DNA from: Candidatus Saccharimonadota bacterium
GTDB lineage: Bacteria > Patescibacteriota > Saccharimonadia > Saccharimonadales > UBA4665
Length of the DNA: 32,000 nt
NCBI GenBank assembly: GCA_016700375.1
Contig: CP065016.1
Coordinates: 120,001 to 152,000 of the forward strand
Reading direction: 5' to 3'
Numbering within the stretch: position 1 is the stretch's first letter; every line of letters starts with the position of its first letter. The translations under genes were made by a program, and so were the position numbers. The notes beneath the pieces were generated by a model that saw nothing but the letters and a program-made list of their open reading frames with translations, was not told the origin of the DNA and searched no databases. Below are positions 23,512-32,000 of the stretch, in pieces.

Positions 23512-23520
23512 CTTATTGGT

Positions 23521-24363
23521 CTAGCCAGCCTGTTTAATTGCTGCAATGTAATTTGGAAGCTGAAAAGTAAGCTCTATTTGACGAGGAGAGTCTGGCGATG
23601 CGCCATTAACTGCCCGCGTACATACTGTAGAATAATTAGGGTCGCTCACCAAGCGGTTATAAAAATCCATTCGTATGGAAGATAAGGTGTCTTCGTCCAA
23701 TGTTCTGTTGCCGACCCGATAGGGTGGCATAAAAGAGCCGCCAAGTTTAGAAGATAAACGAAGTGCGCTCTCACAAAAGCCATGATACTCTTCATCAAAC
23801 ACAGAGCCTGACAGTATCACCCCGCCAACCGCAAGGACACGCTTCATTTCATCTGCTAAAGCCAGAGCCTCATCCTGCGAAGGTGTCCAGTAAGATGCGT
23901 ATGAATCGTGTATGACATGAGCAGTTGCGTCTTTAAGTGTTCGAAGACCATCTAAGGCCAGTCCAGCTATAACGTCGTTTCCTGCGCTAGCTTGATACTG
24001 TGCGTTTAAGTCATCTTGTTCAAGGGCTATTCTACGGCTATTTCTGAACCAAGATAAAAAATCGGATCTTCCTGCGCCAATGTCGATAACTGTTTTGCCT
24101 TCGGCGAAGTTTGTTAGTGCTGCTAGGGAAATTCCGTGAGCACGAGCTAATTGCGAGCCGGTTCGGTCGGTACGTACTCGATCACTCGCTATACCTGAGT
24201 TCTTACGGTATGTAGTGAGCCGTGCGGTACATGCATTGACGGCAAGGGGTATTGCCGAATGTCCATCTATAACCGTACGCAGATTCTGTAAGTAAATGCT
24301 GGACGGTTCTGTGTCTACACGGTATCTAAATACATCTTGAGCCGTCCCAGTATGTCTCTGCAT
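23521..24363 (-). CDS. Class I SAM-dependent methyltransferase (putative), leaderless
   Basis: Motif I is [10 protein letters not shown], with a downstream [10 protein letters not shown] strand. ATG 24363 lies 7 nt after TGaTATACT on the minus strand (-10 at 24371-24376). The track start at 24393 is a TTG. Confidence 0.6.
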
Positions 24364-24422
24364 AGTATATAGTATATCATAAAATATAGACAAAGTAAAT
24401 AATATGTGCTATAATAGGAAGC
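24364..24422. promoter_or_regulatory. AT-rich divergent promoter region for two leaderless genes
   Basis: On the + strand, TGcTATAAT (24407-24415) ends 7 nt before ATG 24423. On the - strand, TATACT (24371-24376) lies 7 nt before ATG 24363. Confidence 0.55.
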
Positions 24423-26024
24423 ATGACGGTTGCTCCTAAGGTCGAGACAGCTGCAATGATGGAGGGTGCTGAAAAACCCTTTGAGGGCTTTGGTGCTGAA
24501 CTAGATGCAGCTAACTTTTACTTTAAGCACACGCACGCTATAGACCCGCAGCGCGTGGAGCGAGTAGTTACCTTATTAGAAGATTTTTCTGGTCCCAGAA
24601 TGAATTCGGCAGCAAAAAGCGCAGTTTTCTTAAGGGATATTTGCTCCGGCGTCGAAGATTCCTTGCTGGCACGTAATGCCACCTGGGCGCTGAATACGTA
24701 CCGCACTAATACCTTTGATACTGAAGAAACCCAAACGTATAAGCTGGCGATTGCTCGAGACGTTAAGCGAATTGACGATTTTAGTCGCGAGATGTTCGAA
24801 CAGGAGGCACGGACCTGTTCTGTTGCTGGTATGGTCTTTAGCGGTATTACACGAGTACTGAGCAAAAAAGAGCGCCGGGCGCACCAAGACCAACGGTGGT
24901 TGCGCGATTCTAACGCAAATGCTGGCGAGCTCCAAGAGCTTCTCGATACCAATAAACGGGCCATAAACCTTGAAGCAATGGTACACTACAGCGCCGAGGT
25001 GCTGGATGATCTCATGGTCGCTACCGGAGCGGTAGACGGCGTAAGGATGCCCGATGACGAAGTTCTCATGCGCAGAATCAGAGATGTAGATGTCATTTTG
25101 GGGCCGTTCCTGGAGATTATTGGGCATGATGGCATGGCAATGGCGCTCAGAAGCCATGCGAATATAGTTCGTCTACAAAAAACCGGGAACGTAGCCTTTG
25201 TCGACAGGGCAAAGAACATGCTCGAGCAATATACCGATAGAGAATATATTGCCGGCCAAATCGAAAAACTTTACGGGGAGCTTTTTGGAGGCGACAGCGT
25301 TGTAGAGCATGTTATTAGCAACAAAACCCAACACGGTATAGCCGTAGGTGAATCTGCATTTCGCTGGAGTGAATGTTATGCGAATGCTCGTGCGGTGTGG
25401 CGCGTAAAATCAGTTGGCTCGCTTGCAATGAAATTGTATCGGTACAGTAAAGAAGGGAAATCAACTGCGACGCCGCAAGATGTTATCGGTGTAACGCTCA
25501 TCACTGACGACCCTGAACAGCTGAATAGCCTTTATCCCATGCTAGTTTTGAGCGTAGAATCATCACAAGCCATTAAGACGACTGTCGCCCCAAGCAAGAA
25601 GAGCGCCTATCATGTTCGGGGTGACGAGTTGTATGTGGAATTGATTTCTAAAGTGGTAAGCGAGCAATTCACTGAGGATGCCTGTACATTGCTTAGTCTC
25701 AGCCCGGTAGAAATAGATACCAAGAACGACGAAAATAACCTTCATCAAACCGCAAAAGCGACATTTACGTTTCATGCTTTGCCGCTTGAAGTGCAGTGCC
25801 AGACAGAATGGGCACGTGAGCGTTCTCGTATTGGAGCGGGCGCACATGGTTTTCATAAAAGCGGCGTCAGAGAGTTAAACCAGCATTTTATAACACAACT
25901 CCATAGTAGAAGGGCTGAATTAGGCACCATGGAGCTCACGAAGGCAAGTGCCGATAGTACCAGAAGATTTATGTCAAGCGCCGCTCAGAGAGGCATACCA
26001 CCGGTAAACTACGGCATTGTTTAA
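24423..26024 (+). CDS. RelA/SpoT-domain nucleotidyltransferase-like protein with unknown N-terminal region of about 300 aa
   Basis: The C-terminal half carries the ordered synthetase-type motifs WRVKSVGSLAMKL, DVIGVTLI, KKSAYHVRG and PLEVQCQTEWARERSRIGAGAHGFHK. These correspond to RxKS..S..K, D..G.R.I, Y.S.H and EvQIRT..h.wAe..H..YK. No HD hydrolase motif was recognised. Confidence 0.6.
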   Translation: MTVAPKVETAAMMEGAEKPFEGFGAELDAANFYFKHTHAIDPQRVERVVTLLEDFSGPRMNSAAKSAVFLRDICSGVEDSLLARNATWALNTYRTNTFDTEETQTYKLAIARDVKRIDDFSREMFEQEARTCSVAGMVFSGITRVLSKKERRAHQDQRWLRDSNANAGELQELLDTNKRAINLEAMVHYSAEVLDDLMVATGAVDGVRMPDDEVLMRRIRDVDVILGPFLEIIGHDGMAMALRSHANIVRLQKTGNVAFVDRAKNMLEQYTDREYIAGQIEKLYGELFGGDSVVEHVISNKTQHGIAVGESAFRWSECYANARAVWRVKSVGSLAMKLYRYSKEGKSTATPQDVIGVTLITDDPEQLNSLYPMLVLSVESSQAIKTTVAPSKKSAYHVRGDELYVELISKVVSEQFTEDACTLLSLSPVEIDTKNDENNLHQTAKATFTFHALPLEVQCQTEWARERSRIGAGAHGFHKSGVRELNQHFITQLHSRRAELGTMELTKASADSTRRFMSSAAQRGIPPVNYGIV

Positions 26025-26280
26025 AGGTTTACCAAAAATCACTCGTAGTATTATGTGCAACGGGTTGACAGGGGTTTGGGTTTTGTGATACCCTGTTGGG
26101 TACATACAAACATTTCCGCATGGTGATGTGAGGTAGGCCCCGCCAGAGGCGAGGAACCCCCGACCGCCATTTTCTTAATGTCACTGTACAAGACATTAAC
26201 CGCGGATGGGTGAGTATCAATATCAATAACTCTTATAAAAAAGGAGCGTGTGGGTTCATGTGAACCTACGCAACATAACT

Positions 26281-26901: not shown

Positions 26902-27041
26902 AAATGAATAGATTACCCATTACCCTGTCACCTGTCACCTTGGATTATCCTGTAGCCTGTCACCATGGTTATACGTCACAGGTTACACCTACGTCACACG
27001 TCACACGTGACACGCTAATCAGCGATGAAAGGAGCTTCTAA
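26898..27041 (+). CDS. Spacer-spanning mini-ORF C (47 aa) in the rplC-rplD spacer
   Basis: The product is [47 protein letters not shown]. The start overlaps the rplC stop (ATGA, 26898-26901) and the stop overlaps the rplD ATG (TAATG, 27039-27043). The 7-mers are ATTACCCx2, TGTCACCx2, GTCACACx2 and GTGACAC. Confidence 0.5.
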   Translation: MKMNRLPITLSPVTLDYPVACHHGYTSQVTPTSHVTRDTLISDERSF

Positions 27042-28113: not shown

Positions 28114-28114
28114 T

Positions 28115-28228
28115 ATGAATCATGAATCACGAATCATGAATCTAGCATGGGAAGTTATCGGCCGCAAGGCGGCAGGCATGATTCATACTACATACTTCAT
28201 GCTTCCGCGACTGAAAGGAGCTGCATAA
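28115..28228 (+). CDS. Spacer-spanning mini-ORF D (37 aa) in the rplW-rplB spacer
   Basis: The product is MNHESRIMNLAWEVIGRKAAGMIHTTYFMLPRLKGAA*. The ATG lies 1 nt after the rplW TAA, with AAGGAGG in the rplW 3' end. The stop overlaps the rplB ATG (TAATG, 28226-28230). It is a paralog of mini-ORF E. Confidence 0.55.
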   Translation: MNHESRIMNLAWEVIGRKAAGMIHTTYFMLPRLKGAA

Positions 28229-29058
28229 TGGCAATTAAACAATACAATCCGACGACGCCTGGTCGTCGCGGTATGTCTAGCCAAGACTTTGACGCGGTGA
28301 CTACACGTAAGCCACTTCGCTCACTGGTTGTTACCAAGCGCCGAGGCAATGGCCGCAATAACCAAGGTCGCATAACGACTCGTCATCAGGGCGGCGGCGC
28401 ACGCAAGCACTATCGCTTGGTAAACTTTGACTTCAAGGGTGAAGGTGTTGTTGAGCACATAGAGTACGACCCAAACCGGAGCGCACGAATTGCACGTATT
28501 AAAGACGCCAAAGGTGCATACCACTATGTACTCGCTGCGAGCGGTATGAAGCAAGGCCAGAAACTGAGCGCCGATGCCGAAGCAGCTATAGAAATGGGCA
28601 ATCGGTTGCCGCTAGCAAACATTCCGGTTGGTACCACAATTCATGCTTTAGAAATGAAGCCAGGGCGCGGCGCACAAGCAGTTCGCAGTGCTGGCAACAG
28701 CGCTATGCTCATGGCCAAAGAAGGCGATTATGCACAGGTTCGTATGCCAAGTGGTGAGGTTCGCAAGTTCCTCCTCGTATGTACTGCCAGCATTGGTGTG
28801 GTCGGTAACGAACAACACCAGAATGTAAAAATCGGCAAAGCTGGCCGTAGTCGTCACCTTGGCAAGCGCCCAAGTGTCCGTGGCGTTGTGATGAACGCTG
28901 TTGACCACCCGCACGGTGGTGGTGACGGTGGTCGTCACCGTATGGCGAAGGCGCCTCGTACGCCATGGGGTCAAAAGACACTTGGCTACAAAACTCGCCG
29001 CCGTAAAGATACTAGCAATATGATCGTAAGAAGCCGCCACGCGGCCAAGAGGAAATAA
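28228..29058 (+). CDS. rplB: 50S ribosomal protein L2
   Basis: MAIKQYNPTTPGRRGMS.. gives the canonical N-terminus at 28228. The motif ..VMNAVDHPHGGGDG.. is present. Confidence 0.96.
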   Translation: MAIKQYNPTTPGRRGMSSQDFDAVTTRKPLRSLVVTKRRGNGRNNQGRITTRHQGGGARKHYRLVNFDFKGEGVVEHIEYDPNRSARIARIKDAKGAYHYVLAASGMKQGQKLSADAEAAIEMGNRLPLANIPVGTTIHALEMKPGRGAQAVRSAGNSAMLMAKEGDYAQVRMPSGEVRKFLLVCTASIGVVGNEQHQNVKIGKAGRSRHLGKRPSVRGVVMNAVDHPHGGGDGGRHRMAKAPRTPWGQKTLGYKTRRRKDTSNMIVRSRHAAKRK

Positions 29059-29061
29059 GCG

Positions 29062-29406
29062 ATGGCAAGTCCTAACCCCAATAAAACATGTGGAACCTGT
29101 GCTCTCGGCGAACCACAAATCGATACTTTTTTCACATGCGGCAATTACAAACGTGTTCCACAATTTGATTCAACGGACGCTATAAATTGTAACGTTGACA
29201 ACACAAACATCATTAGTTTGGGATGGAGTGTCCCTGGTCTAGAAGGGGTATGGCTAGATAGATACCCAAAGAACGCTAGCTGCGGACCATGCGCTGGTCT
29301 ACTAGCCGCGACGCGCTCTCAGGTTGTATGTCACTTAACAAACATTGCTCTTCGGAAAGAGAACAGTGACTGGTGCGGTCAATGGCAGCCAGAAGGGAGT
29401 TTTTAA
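29062..29406 (+). CDS. Cys-rich 114-aa protein inserted between rplB and rpsS
   Basis: The ATG lies 3 nt after the rplB stop, and the stop TAA abuts the rpsS ATG. There are 8 Cys in two similar modules (C10-x2-C13-x12-C26-x16-C43 and C74-x2-C77-x12-C90-x14-C105). The 3' end carries the rpsS SD (GAAGGGAG). Confidence 0.6.
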   Translation: MASPNPNKTCGTCALGEPQIDTFFTCGNYKRVPQFDSTDAINCNVDNTNIISLGWSVPGLEGVWLDRYPKNASCGPCAGLLAATRSQVVCHLTNIALRKENSDWCGQWQPEGSF

Positions 29407-29679
29407 ATGAGTCGTTCATTAAAGAAGGGGCCGTTTATCGATCCGAAGCTCGCGAAAAAAGTCGTGGCGCTTGGCCCAGAGGATCGCACCATTATCAAAA
29501 CATGGGCCCGTGCTAGCACAATTGCCCCAGAGTTTGTTGGTAAAACATTTGCCGTACACAATGGCAAAGTCCACGTACCGGTTTTTGTTACCGAAAATAT
29601 GGTTGGCCACAAGCTCGGTGAATTTAGCCCAACGAGAAAGTTTAGGTCTCATGGCGGAAAGCTAGCCAAAGGTAAATAG
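29407..29679 (+). CDS. rpsS: 30S ribosomal protein S19
   Basis: The sequence is [39 protein letters not shown]. Confidence 0.96.
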
Positions 29680-29680
29680 G

Positions 29681-29797
29681 ATGAATAAAGAATCAAGAAT
29701 CATGAATCATGTTAAGGAAATTATCAGCAGCGAAGCTGCTGGCATGATTCATACTTCATACTTCATGATTCAGAAGCCGGAGGATATATGTCTGTAA
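29681..29797 (+). CDS. Spacer-spanning mini-ORF E (38 aa) in the rpsS-rplV spacer
   Basis: The product is MNKESRIMNHVKEIISSEAAGMIHTSYFMIQKPEDICL*. The ATG lies 1 nt after the rpsS TAG. The stop at 29795-29797 lies 7 nt past the rplV ATG at 29788. Confidence 0.5.
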   Translation: MNKESRIMNHVKEIISSEAAGMIHTSYFMIQKPEDICL

Positions 29798-30168
29798 AAG
29801 CAGAATCTAAAGGCGTACGCTTGAGCCCTCGTAAGGTTGCCGCTGTTGCGACGCTTGTACGAGGTCGCACTGTAGCCGATGCTATTGTCATTCTTGAACA
29901 TACACCCCGCCGGGCAGCTCTTTCTGTGCTTAAGACAATCAAGAGTGCTCAAGCAAATGCCGCCCACAACCACAACTACAAAGCCGATACCCTAGTCATT
30001 ACTGAAATTACGGTCAATCATGGCCCACGTATGAAACGATTTCGACCTGCTGCCATGGGGCGCGCGCTGCCATACATGAAGCGGAGCAGCCACATACGAG
30101 TTCTCGTCGATGGTGAACAACGTCCAACCAAAGCTGTTAAACCTGTAGCGAAGGAGACTAAGTCATGA
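29788..30168 (+). CDS. rplV: 50S ribosomal protein L22
   Basis: The sequence is RLSPRKVAAVATLVRGRTVADAIVILEHTPRRAA..ANAAHNH.. Confidence 0.95.
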   Translation: MSVKAESKGVRLSPRKVAAVATLVRGRTVADAIVILEHTPRRAALSVLKTIKSAQANAAHNHNYKADTLVITEITVNHGPRMKRFRPAAMGRALPYMKRSSHIRVLVDGEQRPTKAVKPVAKETKS

Positions 30169-30305
30169 AAATCCTAAGCACTAAGCACGAAATTCTAAAC
30201 AAATTCAAATATTCTAATGTTTCAAATTTTCAAATTTTGGAACTTGTTCATTGTTTAGCATTTAGAAATTCGAATTTTGGATTTACTCCAGAAAGGAGTG
30301 CATGA
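30165..30305 (+). CDS. Spacer-spanning mini-ORF F (46 aa) in the rplV-rpsC spacer
   Basis: The product is MKILSTKHEILNKFKYSNVSNFQILELVHCLAFRNSNFGFTPERSA*. The start overlaps the rplV stop (ATGA, 30165-30168). The stop overlaps the rpsC ATG (TGATG, 30303-30307). Confidence 0.5.
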   Translation: MKILSTKHEILNKFKYSNVSNFQILELVHCLAFRNSNFGFTPERSA

Positions 30306-30934
30306 TGGGTCAGAAAGTTAACCCCATTAGCATGCGCCTGCAAGCCAATAAAGATTGGCGGAGCAAATGGTTTGTCGGCAAACGACAATACGCCGATTAT
30401 CTTGCCCAGGATCTGCAGGTCCGCAAGCTCATTCAGGATAAGTTTGGCTCACGCGGTGCTATTAATAAAGTCGACATAGAGCGTTCGCCTAACCTCGTTA
30501 CCGTTACAATCGCCACAGCAAAAGCTGGCGTGGTCATTGGTCGTGGTGGTCAAGGCGCCCAAGAACTGAAGGCCGCCATAGAAAAGGTATATGGCGTACC
30601 GGCACGTGTAAATATTGAGGAAGTAAAAAAACCTGACCTGTACGCGAAGCTAGTTGCCGAGAACATTGCACATCAGCTAGAGCGACGTATGAGCTTCCGC
30701 CGCGCTATTAAAAGCGCGAGTGCCGCCAGTATGCGTGCCGGAGCAAAAGGTGTCCGAATAGAAGTTGCCGGCCGCCTGAACGGTGCTGAAATGAGCCGCC
30801 GCGAAAAAGAAGCTGTTGGTTCAGTGCCACTACATACCATCCGTGCAGATATTGACTTTGCCTCTGCCCGAGCAAACTGGCCCGGCGCAGGCATTATTGG
30901 TATCAAAGTTTGGATATACAAGGGGGACAAATAA
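30305..30934 (+). CDS. rpsC: 30S ribosomal protein S3
   Basis: MGQKVNPISMRL.. gives the canonical N-terminus from ATG 30305. The ATG at 30302 would add one Met. Confidence 0.95.
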   Translation: MGQKVNPISMRLQANKDWRSKWFVGKRQYADYLAQDLQVRKLIQDKFGSRGAINKVDIERSPNLVTVTIATAKAGVVIGRGGQGAQELKAAIEKVYGVPARVNIEEVKKPDLYAKLVAENIAHQLERRMSFRRAIKSASAASMRAGAKGVRIEVAGRLNGAEMSRREKEAVGSVPLHTIRADIDFASARANWPGAGIIGIKVWIYKGDK

Positions 30935-30935
30935 A

Positions 30936-31082
30936 ATGATTTCATCATTTCAATTATCCTTTGGCCTGTCACCTGTCACATTGGATTATCCTGTCGCAAT
31001 TACCAATTGTTACATGTCACATGTCACGCCAATGTCACAGGTTACAGGTGACATGTTAATCGCGACTGAAAGGAGCTTTTAA
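30936..31082 (+). CDS. Spacer-spanning mini-ORF G (48 aa) in the rpsC-rplP spacer
   Basis: The product is [48 protein letters not shown]. The ATG lies 1 nt after the rpsC TAA, and the stop overlaps the rplP ATG (TAATG, 31080-31084). It is a paralog of mini-ORF C. Arms 30965-30984 and 31029-31048 are complementary at 18 of 20 positions. Confidence 0.55.
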
Positions 31083-31495
31083 TGTTGCTCCCAAAAAGAA
31101 CTAAATTCCGCAAAGTCCGCAAGGGCAAGATTCGCGGTGTTGCCACAGCTGGCAATTACATTGCCTACGGCGAATACGCTTTGCAAGCACAAGGTCACGA
31201 ACGTATAACGAGCCGACAAATTGAGGCCAGCCGTCAGGCGATGACAAGGTACATTAAGCGCGGTGGAAAAATCTGGATTCGCATTTTCCCGCATACGCCC
31301 GTTACCCGCAAGCCACTGGACGTCAAAATGGGTAGTGGCAAGGGTTCGCCTGAGTTTTTTGTTGCCAAAGTTCGCCCGGGCACCATTATGTTTGAAATGC
31401 AGGGTGTCAGTGAGGAAACTGCAAGAGAAGCTATGCGCCTCGCTGGTCACAAGCTGCCAGTCAAGACAAAATTTGTCGTGAAGGAGGGCGTGTAA
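31082..31495 (+). CDS. rplP: 50S ribosomal protein L16
   Basis: The sequence is [44 protein letters not shown]. Confidence 0.96.
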
Positions 31496-31608
31496 TGAGG
31501 TATAAGCATTCAGCGGAAAGGGGTAAGGGGTTTTCGTCTAGAACCCTTACTACTTACTACTTACTACTTACTACTTCTGAAGTGATGCCCGAAGGGAGGA
31601 ACGTATGA
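31495..31608 (+). CDS. Spacer-spanning mini-ORF H (37 aa) in the rplP-rpmC spacer
   Basis: The product is [37 protein letters not shown]. The start overlaps the rplP stop (TAATG, 31493-31497), and the stop overlaps the rpmC ATG (ATGA, 31605-31608). A (CTTACTA)n array runs about 31546-31576. The hairpin is GTAAGGGGTT..GAACCCTTAC. Confidence 0.5.
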   Translation: MRYKHSAERGKGFSSRTLTTYYLLLTTSEVMPEGRNV

Positions 31609-31805: not shown

Positions 31806-31927
31806 TGGAAAATCCAAATTCCAAATTCCAAACTCCAAACAAATTCCAGCACTCAAATTCCAACGAAGCTCATTTGGAACTTGGAACTTGGAACTTGGAG
31901 CTTACAGCTCCTGAAAGGAGTCTGTAG
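31805..31927 (+). CDS. Spacer-spanning mini-ORF I (40 aa) in the rpmC-rpsQ spacer
   Basis: The product is MENPNSKFQTPNKFQHSNSNEAHLELGTWNLELTAPERSL*. The start overlaps the rpmC stop (TAATG, 31803-31807). The stop TAG lies 2 nt before the rpsQ ATG. The CCAAATT-type array faces a complementary GAACTTG x3 array. Confidence 0.5.
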   Translation: MENPNSKFQTPNKFQHSNSNEAHLELGTWNLELTAPERSL

Positions 31928-31929
31928 TT

Positions 31930-32000
31930 ATGGCCAAAACTATTACTGGTGTCGTCACGAGCAATAAGGCCGACAAGACCATTGTCGTCACTGTGCGAGA
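31930..32000 (+). CDS. rpsQ: 30S ribosomal protein S17 (3' end cut by window edge)
   Basis: MAKTITGVVTSNKADKTIVVTVR.. is a typical S17 N-terminus in the expected operon position. Confidence 0.85.
   Translation, partial: MAKTITGVVTSNKADKTIVVTVR

Follow-up and report, generated by a model that had tools for sequence, protein, structure and literature searches.

In a member of the Saccharimonadales (Saccharibacteria, Patescibacteria), the S10 operon holds, between its genes for ribosomal proteins L2 and S19, an open reading frame (ORF), here named orfX, that occupies positions 29062..29406 of the 32,000-nt stretch of DNA analyzed in this work (the window, to which all coordinates refer unless another locus is named). 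Read on the forward strand, orfX is a 345-nt cassette encoding an eight-cysteine protein of 114 aa, and it is defined by the sequence and by homologues at the same junction. It is flanked on the left by rplB (uL2; 28228..29058, forward strand) and on the right by rpsS (uS19; 29407..29679, forward strand), both taken from the ORF list; these conserved flanks are the likely left and right homology arms for recombination. In the loci and contigs compared with the window (labeled L001 to L098), gene calls with Pfam place Ribosomal_L2_N and Ribosomal_L2_C at the position of L001 equivalent to rplB, and Ribosomal_S19 at the position equivalent to rpsS in L001 to L007.

The stop codon of rplB (TAA, 29056-29058) is followed by a single GCG triplet (29059-29061), the orfX ATG begins at 29062, 3 nt past that stop, and the orfX TAA (29404-29406) abuts the rpsS ATG (29407). 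For its own translation orfX uses a Shine-Dalgarno (SD) sequence, AAGAGGA, embedded in the final rplB codons (29047..29053, forward strand), which serves as the direct SD of rpsS in relatives whose site is empty. The junctions of such relatives read ...AAGAGGAAATAANNNATGAGTCGT (L012, L013, L016, L019, L023 and others), and because relatives without an insert share the form ...AAGAGGAAATAA-NNN-ATGAGTCGT, the window corresponds to an empty site plus exactly 345 nt placed ahead of the rpsS ATG. A second SD, AAGGGAG, lies within the orfX codons for E-G-S (29393..29399, forward strand), 7 nt ahead of the rpsS ATG, and an element of the form (A/G)AAGG(G/A)(A/G) closes all seven alleles of the family described below. 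A preliminary description of this DNA had proposed that orfX is tightly coupled to both neighbors and that its 3' end supplies the SD of rpsS. The coordinates, the 3-nt gap, the abutting TAA and ATG, and the AAGGGAG element bear out both proposals.

The chance that an open frame of 114 codons would exactly bridge this gap is approximately 0.004 in one given frame. Moreover, alleles differ from each other at synonymous sites within their conserved motifs, which shows that it is the protein and not the DNA that is conserved. orfX is a real coding gene with tight coupling to its neighbors. A reading of the segment as an RNA element was ruled out, since Rfam gave no match within orfX and no stable structure was found: neither junction showed unusual RNA structure, and the segment 29360-29430 folds no better than shuffled sequences (z = -0.27). 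An independent transcription unit was likewise ruled out by the lack, within the ORF and beside it, of any site resembling a promoter or a terminator. Foreign base composition was considered and dropped (GC 0.46 and GC3 0.39, barely under the neighboring genes).

The cysteines of the orfX protein stand at positions 10, 13, 26, 43, 74, 77, 90 and 105, in the order CGTC-x12-C-x16-C followed by CGPC-x12-C-x14-C, exactly as had been described before. Searches of Pfam, NCBIfam, PADLOC and PHROGs returned nothing above threshold for orfX (in NCBIfam, no match at all), and the other family members likewise gave no match above threshold in these libraries. An initial search of Protein Data Bank (PDB) sequences with orfX gave no match above threshold, and a word-indexed search of 5.8 billion protein clusters recovered only orfX itself. 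An exhaustive HMMER scan of 1.84 billion representatives retrieved six homologues, P0002 to P0007 (92-116 aa, E = 3e-9 to 1.5e-5), to which a profile search added no members. The whole family amounts to seven sequence clusters among approximately 15 billion proteins. A weak match to TackOD1 (E = 0.021) occurred in one member only and was dropped.

Pairwise identity across the seven alleles is 25-41% in all comparisons, and two motifs, SPNPxKTCxTC near the N-terminus and DWCGQWQPKGSF near the C-terminus, are present in every member. Six of the seven alleles retain all eight cysteine positions; the remaining one, P0005, keeps four, the equivalents of C10, C13, C90 and C105. In the alignment, scaffold residues are conserved and the loops between them vary in both sequence and length. 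The preliminary description, which recognized no family, had pointed to a profile hidden Markov model (HMM) search and to the same junction in other genomes as ways forward, and both were informative: the homologues are distant, all six are located between rplB and rpsS with a stop codon abutting the rpsS ATG and the same SD-encoding end, and five of the six retain the cysteine pattern. No family member was found in the JGI metagenome contigs and viral contigs that were searched, and tblastn searches of phages and plasmids gave no match. orfX thus belongs to a rare, undescribed family that was found nowhere but at the rplB-rpsS junction of Saccharimonadales.

The N- and C-terminal halves of the family were searched separately against PDB sequences (177,635 distinct), and each half selected the iron-sulfur proteins of high potential (HiPIPs). 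The sole match of the N-half profile was PioC (6xyv, E = 0.35). Aligned to HiPIP with hhalign, this half scored a probability of 83% (P = 8.7e-6), with SPNPNKTCGTC of orfX lying over SPNGAKRCGTC of PioC, and none of 300 column-shuffled controls reached the score. The motif concerned (aa 2-18, ASPNPNKTCGTCALGEP; 29065..29115, forward strand) resembles the stretch of HiPIP that runs up to and through the cluster ligands Cys1 and Cys2. For the C-half profile, the sole PDB match was the HiPIP of Rhodoferax fermentans (1hlq, E = 0.26), which the full-length family profile matched with E = 0.075; the Pfam HIPIP model, over its positions 7-65 of 66, matched P0004 with E = 0.0073. When the C half was aligned by hhalign with a profile built from four HiPIPs, the probability was 79% (P = 1.7e-5), and no shuffled control out of 300 came near the score (31.2, compared to a shuffle mean of 9.7 and maximum of 20.7).

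This second alignment pairs the four ligand cysteines, the Leu that follows Cys3, the two Trp residues before Cys4 and at Cys4+3, and the chain end. The HiPIP-like site is predicted to comprise C74, C77, C90 and C105 of the C-terminal module (aa 66-111, PKNASCGPC...VVCHLT...DWCGQWQPE; 29257..29394, forward strand). The spacing C74-x2-C77-x12-C90-x14-C105, kept in six members, agrees column for column with the cysteines of 1hlq and of the four-HiPIP profile. Within the family, Cys3 is followed by the pattern C-[HQN]-[LV]-[TM], and W104-C105 and W108 are invariant; these residues align with C-x-L/V-F and GWCxxW of HiPIPs, the Gly before Trp being D, N or S in the family. Each PDB E-value is marginal when taken alone. 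However, HiPIPs make up only about a dozen of the 177,635 distinct PDB sequences, and since two independent halves both select so rare a family, a relationship to HiPIP or a close mimicry of it is strongly indicated.

HiPIPs known so far are exported, periplasmic electron carriers, and to our knowledge the Saccharibacterial lineage is not known for HiPIP-type electron transfer. We found nothing relevant in the literature on HiPIPs in Patescibacteria or the candidate phyla radiation. As a class, HiPIPs are [4Fe-4S] electron carriers of 50-100 aa (PMC7462912). The likeness to PF01355 and its members PioC (6xyv) and 1hlq consists in a small protein with four cysteines ordered CxxC...C...C, and in a C-terminal module that shares the ligands, a Leu following Cys3, a Trp preceding Cys4, an aromatic residue at Cys4+3 and the position of the C-terminal end. 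The orfX protein differs in having eight cysteines instead of four and approximately 60 extra residues between its HiPIP-like ends, in scoring below the Pfam gathering threshold, in lacking an export signal, and in being encoded in a Saccharibacterial ribosomal protein operon instead of a photosynthetic or respiratory gene context. It is a distant relative or mimic of the HiPIP scaffold with a new architecture: a predicted cytoplasmic protein of approximately 100-116 aa whose two ends are HiPIP-like. There is strong evidence from the alignments that these ends are related to HiPIP or closely mimic it.

It is predicted that the protein almost certainly binds metal, most likely as a [4Fe-4S] cluster held HiPIP-style by four cysteines together with a second Cys4 metal site. 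The zinc-ribbon-like modules suggested in the preliminary description did not hold up: no zinc-ribbon family appeared among Pfam matches up to E = 10 for any member, the sole zinc-finger match in the family was zf-P11 (E = 0.24, one member), each module has a single CxxC knuckle, and only the similarities to HiPIP are significant. The internal duplication suggested at the same time has mixed support: both halves resemble HiPIP segments, but when aligned directly with each other by hhalign they match only at the CxxC knuckle (P = 0.047). The protein may be a tandem of two degenerate HiPIP-like modules, or it may be nested, with one HiPIP split by an insert that carries the second Cys4 site. The nested architecture is slightly favored because P0005 retains exactly the outer four cysteines.

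orfX is an accessory gene and not a core ribosomal protein gene. The family HMM matched none of the six-frame ORFs in the loci of the 80 closest species representatives. In two genomes whose L2 protein is 100% identical to that of the window, the junction holds something else: a 158-nt spacer of heptamer repeats in L008, and an unrelated 124-aa ORF, itself an orphan, in L009. Curated ribosomal protein models (Pfam above threshold, NCBIfam) did not match orfX. The earlier suggestion of a ribosome-associated or ribosomal-protein-like factor is not supported, in view of this absence from all 80 closest species, of the different content beside an identical L2, and of a family of only seven clusters.

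Across the lineage, the junction itself is a hot spot at which coupled ORFs of unrelated sequence are inserted. Among 78 related species having both rplB and rpsS, inserts of at least 200 nt are found between these genes in 16, compared to 0-2 species at each of seven neighboring junctions (L3-L4 to L16-L29). All 17 inserts of at least 190 nt at L2-S19 are filled by a single ORF, or by two in L074. The first ORF begins within a few nucleotides of the rplB stop codon, the final one reaches the rpsS ATG or overlaps it (mostly by 4 nt), and each insert carries its own SD for rpsS. These ORFs are unrelated to orfX and to each other, except for similar N-termini in L014 and L047, and no Pfam domain was found in the ten that were scanned out of 18 other junction ORFs. 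The largest insert (L074 1263-1847, 585 nt) contains two consecutive coupled ORFs of approximately 98 aa each. We found no description in the literature of inserts in the ribosomal operons of Saccharibacteria, of variable ORF cassettes at L2-S19, or of the orfX family.

Allele comparisons indicate how the cassette moves. The hosts of P0002, P0003 and P0004 have S19 proteins that are 100% identical, S3 99-100% and L22 92-96%, and over the 900 nt downstream these loci show 91-94% DNA identity. Within the ORF, DNA identity is 45-55%, with insertions and deletions (indels), and protein identity 39-41%; identity falls approximately 40 nt past the ORF start and recovers approximately 40 nt before its end. 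Over all seven alleles, identity stays flat at 25-41% whether the host S19 proteins are 74% or 100% identical. The allele of the window, in turn, occurs on seven further contigs from different projects without a single difference in 345 nt. Compared to the window, the contigs that carry it show 31 mismatches over the 831 positions of rplB (3.7%) and 19 over the 273 of rpsS (7%), and 13-24 differences would be expected in orfX from this flank divergence (Poisson). The mismatch maps delimit a mismatch-free tract (29026..29464, no strand assigned) that probably represents a recently exchanged segment. It is bounded by mismatches at 29025 (the last before) and 29465 (the first after), with three flank haplotypes (L001 type, L007 and L004). 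Because alleles diverge within similar flanks and one allele is identical within diverged flanks, exchange of the cassette by recombination is indicated. Old, discrete alleles thus appear to have been moved between strains by homologous recombination through the near-invariant 3' end of rplB and 5' end of rpsS.

A diversity-generating retroelement target was rejected as an explanation of this variation, given no template copy in the 32-kb window, where no second DNA copy of orfX was found, and alleles that differ by indels and at all four bases. In a separate comparison, L004 aligned with window positions 29013-31488 at 99.1% identity over rpsC-rplP and approximately 96% over rpsS-rplV, and it has no rpsS-rplV spacer. 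This pattern suggests mosaic recombination along the operon in the population.

Taken as a whole, we consider it probable, though well short of certain, that orfX is an exchanged accessory cassette at an insertion hot spot, encoding a predicted HiPIP-like metal protein coupled into the S10 operon. The cassette consists of a single ORF without a promoter of its own, with stop and start codons adjacent on both sides. It would be translated by coupling or by termination-reinitiation within the operon, a concept reviewed elsewhere (PMC6728339, PMC12548453). orfX would take the SD that otherwise serves rpsS and give rpsS a replacement in its own last codons, and the coupled position might bring its product to roughly the abundance of a ribosomal protein. 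The protein would then fold around a HiPIP-like Cys4 [4Fe-4S] site and a second Cys4 metal site. Its role would be that of a redox, iron or partner-binding factor that varies from strain to strain, and not of a structural component of the ribosome. Homologous recombination would both spread the gene and replace it, the arms being the 3' end of rplB and the 5' end of rpsS, which are near-invariant.

Several observations weigh against this explanation. P0004, the best-scoring member, reaches 17.0 bits against a Pfam HIPIP gathering cut-off of 22, and it is the only one of seven members with E < 0.01 for that model, no HIPIP match being reported for the other six. The orfX protein has no export signal; its N-terminus, MASPNPNKTCGTC, contains neither a twin-arginine motif nor a hydrophobic stretch (maximum Kyte-Doolittle value over 15 residues, 1.02). 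AlphaFold2 models, built from the single sequence or from the seven-sequence alignment, have pLDDT values of 32-34, which is too low to use. With regard to exchange, the look-up of allele-bearing contigs selects for an identical protein (the 90%-identity cluster of the window protein holds a single sequence), although such selection leaves the missing synonymous differences unexplained. An identical allele within diverged flanks could in principle also reflect chimeric metagenome assembly, but these haplotype junctions were recovered repeatedly, in five assemblies from different projects.

For the function of the product, a metal-cluster protein in redox, iron or partner binding would lead our ranking, with a conflict-type binder bearing variable loops as a serious sub-option. 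A structural ribosomal protein, a pure bridging ORF and a selfish homing element are less likely. The conflict or immunity proposal, in its full form, holds that a metal-stabilized scaffold carries hypervariable loops that recognize a fast-evolving partner (a toxin, phage or host factor), the operon keeping its abundance constitutive. Discrete, anciently diverged alleles, whose 25-41% similarity is flat regardless of host distance (S19 74-100% identical), agree with such a role, as do conserved scaffold residues among loops that vary in sequence and length and the exchange of alleles between strains. Nevertheless, we regard it as unlikely. No match to known defense or immunity families was obtained, no toxin or partner gene lies adjacent (the neighbors are all ribosomal protein genes), and HiPIP-type proteins vary strongly even without conflict.

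It is harder still to maintain that orfX encodes a metal-binding mini-protein made together with L2 and S19 that joins or services the ribosome, which we consider improbable. The gene does sit in the S10 operon, tightly coupled on both sides, its family has never been found elsewhere, and several bacterial ribosomal proteins are small Cys4 metal binders. The zinc-binding proteins bL31, bL32, bL33, bL36 and uS14 are likewise small, Cys-rich and encoded with ribosomal protein genes. These proteins have no sequence match to orfX, however, and each Cys4 group of orfX consists of one CxxC and two single cysteines and not of two knuckles. orfX is also sporadic and strain-variable: it is missing from 80 of 80 closest species representatives, and sister genomes with identical L2 hold a repeat spacer or an unrelated ORF instead. 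Neither Pfam above threshold nor NCBIfam gave a match, ribosomal protein models included. Finally, alleles that are 39-41% identical where S19 and S3 are 99-100% identical show the opposite of how a ribosome component evolves.

Another proposal, to which we assign a very low probability, is that the frame is open merely so that ribosomes finishing rplB reach rpsS, the peptide itself being functionless. The preliminary description had noted the same junction logic in mini-ORF spacers of this operon, and the stop-to-start arrangement does hold for orfX. Indeed, an ORF that reaches from the stop of the upstream gene to the start of the downstream gene spans every insert at this junction as well as the heptamer-repeat spacers at other junctions, and the other junction ORFs are mutually unrelated orphans without a Pfam match. 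A mere bridge does not account for eight cysteines kept in six of seven alleles and two long motifs kept in all seven while the DNA is otherwise near-random, for motifs that vary at synonymous sites, or for two halves that are both significantly similar to a known metalloprotein family. Least credible of all is a selfish, homing-type element promoting its own copying into empty rplB-rpsS junctions: insertion is precise, presence and absence alternate at one site, and an identical copy lies in diverged backgrounds with an identity tract reaching slightly into both flanks, but there is no nuclease, recombinase or transposase signature (Pfam, PHROGs, PADLOC; the protein has one His only), no terminal repeat or hairpin and no copy in phages or plasmids. 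Homologous recombination of the ordinary kind, acting on near-invariant flanks, suffices to explain the pattern.

Two known systems resemble an exchanged accessory cassette of this kind. Replacement (flexible) genomic islands occupy one chromosomal site between conserved genes and hold non-homologous content according to strain. The rplB-rpsS locus shares with them unrelated contents at one site in close relatives, sharp identity borders, and alleles older than the strains that carry them. It differs in that the exchanged unit is a single ORF of 190-590 nt and not kilobases, that the site lies inside the S10 ribosomal protein operon, and that each cassette must supply stop-to-start coupling and a new SD for the essential downstream gene. 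In its behavior the locus resembles a replacement island in miniature, set within a core operon. Integron gene cassettes offer a second parallel, being promoter-less single ORFs of diverse, mostly orphan content expressed from an upstream platform. In contrast to these, orfX has no attC-like hairpin at the cassette 3' end (z = -0.27) and no integrase nearby, and its exchange appears to use the homology of flanking genes.

Variation in and around this operon is not restricted to the rplB-rpsS junction. In the window genome, spacers of approximately 100-150 nt separate genes at almost every other junction of the S10 operon, and heptamer-repeat spacers lie at 26902-27040, 28114-28227, 29680-29787, 30169-30301, 30935-31081, 31496-31604 and 31806-31930. 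They are built of direct 7-nt repeats (e.g., ATGAATC) followed by inverted counterparts (TTCATAC), and in most of them a mini-ORF of 37-48 aa bridges the distance between the upstream stop and the downstream start. Their presence varies among close relatives, and in L008, L010 and L011 a repeat spacer sits at rplB-rpsS itself. Of two spacers that were folded, with z-scores of -2.7 and -1.2, only one is more stable than its shuffles. Long inserts also occur elsewhere in the operon, namely at L4-L23 in L009 (258 nt), at L23-L2 in L017 and L020 (328 and 310 nt, respectively) and at S19-L22 in L015 (298 nt). Between rpsH and rplF, ORFs without a Pfam match are present in L095 (9638-9877, 79 aa) and L098 (9605-9811, 68 aa), and both of these genomes carry an allele of the orfX family as well. 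Just upstream of rplC, approximately 2.5 kb of the window (23517-26043) could not be aligned with the closest genomes L008, L009 and L010. It carries a 290-aa ORF on the reverse strand and a 533-aa ORF on the forward strand, for neither of which Pfam gave a match, and is a second stretch of strain-variable DNA beside the ribosomal operon.

Few gene arrangements in bacteria are as conserved as that of the S10 operon, yet one of its junctions tolerates, and seems to favor, strain-variable cassettes of a single ORF. About one in five related species carries a cassette at L2-S19, and marker-gene pipelines that concatenate L2 and S19 should expect inserts. orfX adds a new protein family with HiPIP-like metal-site motifs and no export signal. 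If the predictions made here are correct, core operons can be used as recombination-accessible expression platforms in bacteria with reduced genomes, the HiPIP scaffold has given rise to a cytoplasmic branch that bears a further Cys4 site, and the locus offers a compact case of extreme allele divergence beside genes that hardly change. A bolder proposal, which we find unlikely but worth stating, is that the junction is, in Saccharimonadales, a dedicated expression slot in which small proteins are swapped through recombination at the near-invariant ends of the ribosomal genes and produced at ribosomal protein levels. Its Cys8 HiPIP-like occupant would then be hypervariable through binding a fast-evolving partner, for example in strain-specific protection of the translation apparatus from phages or toxins, or as an accessory of the ribosome that senses redox state. 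Were this true, the slot would give epibionts with reduced genomes a new means of carrying accessory functions, and of exchanging them, within a core operon.

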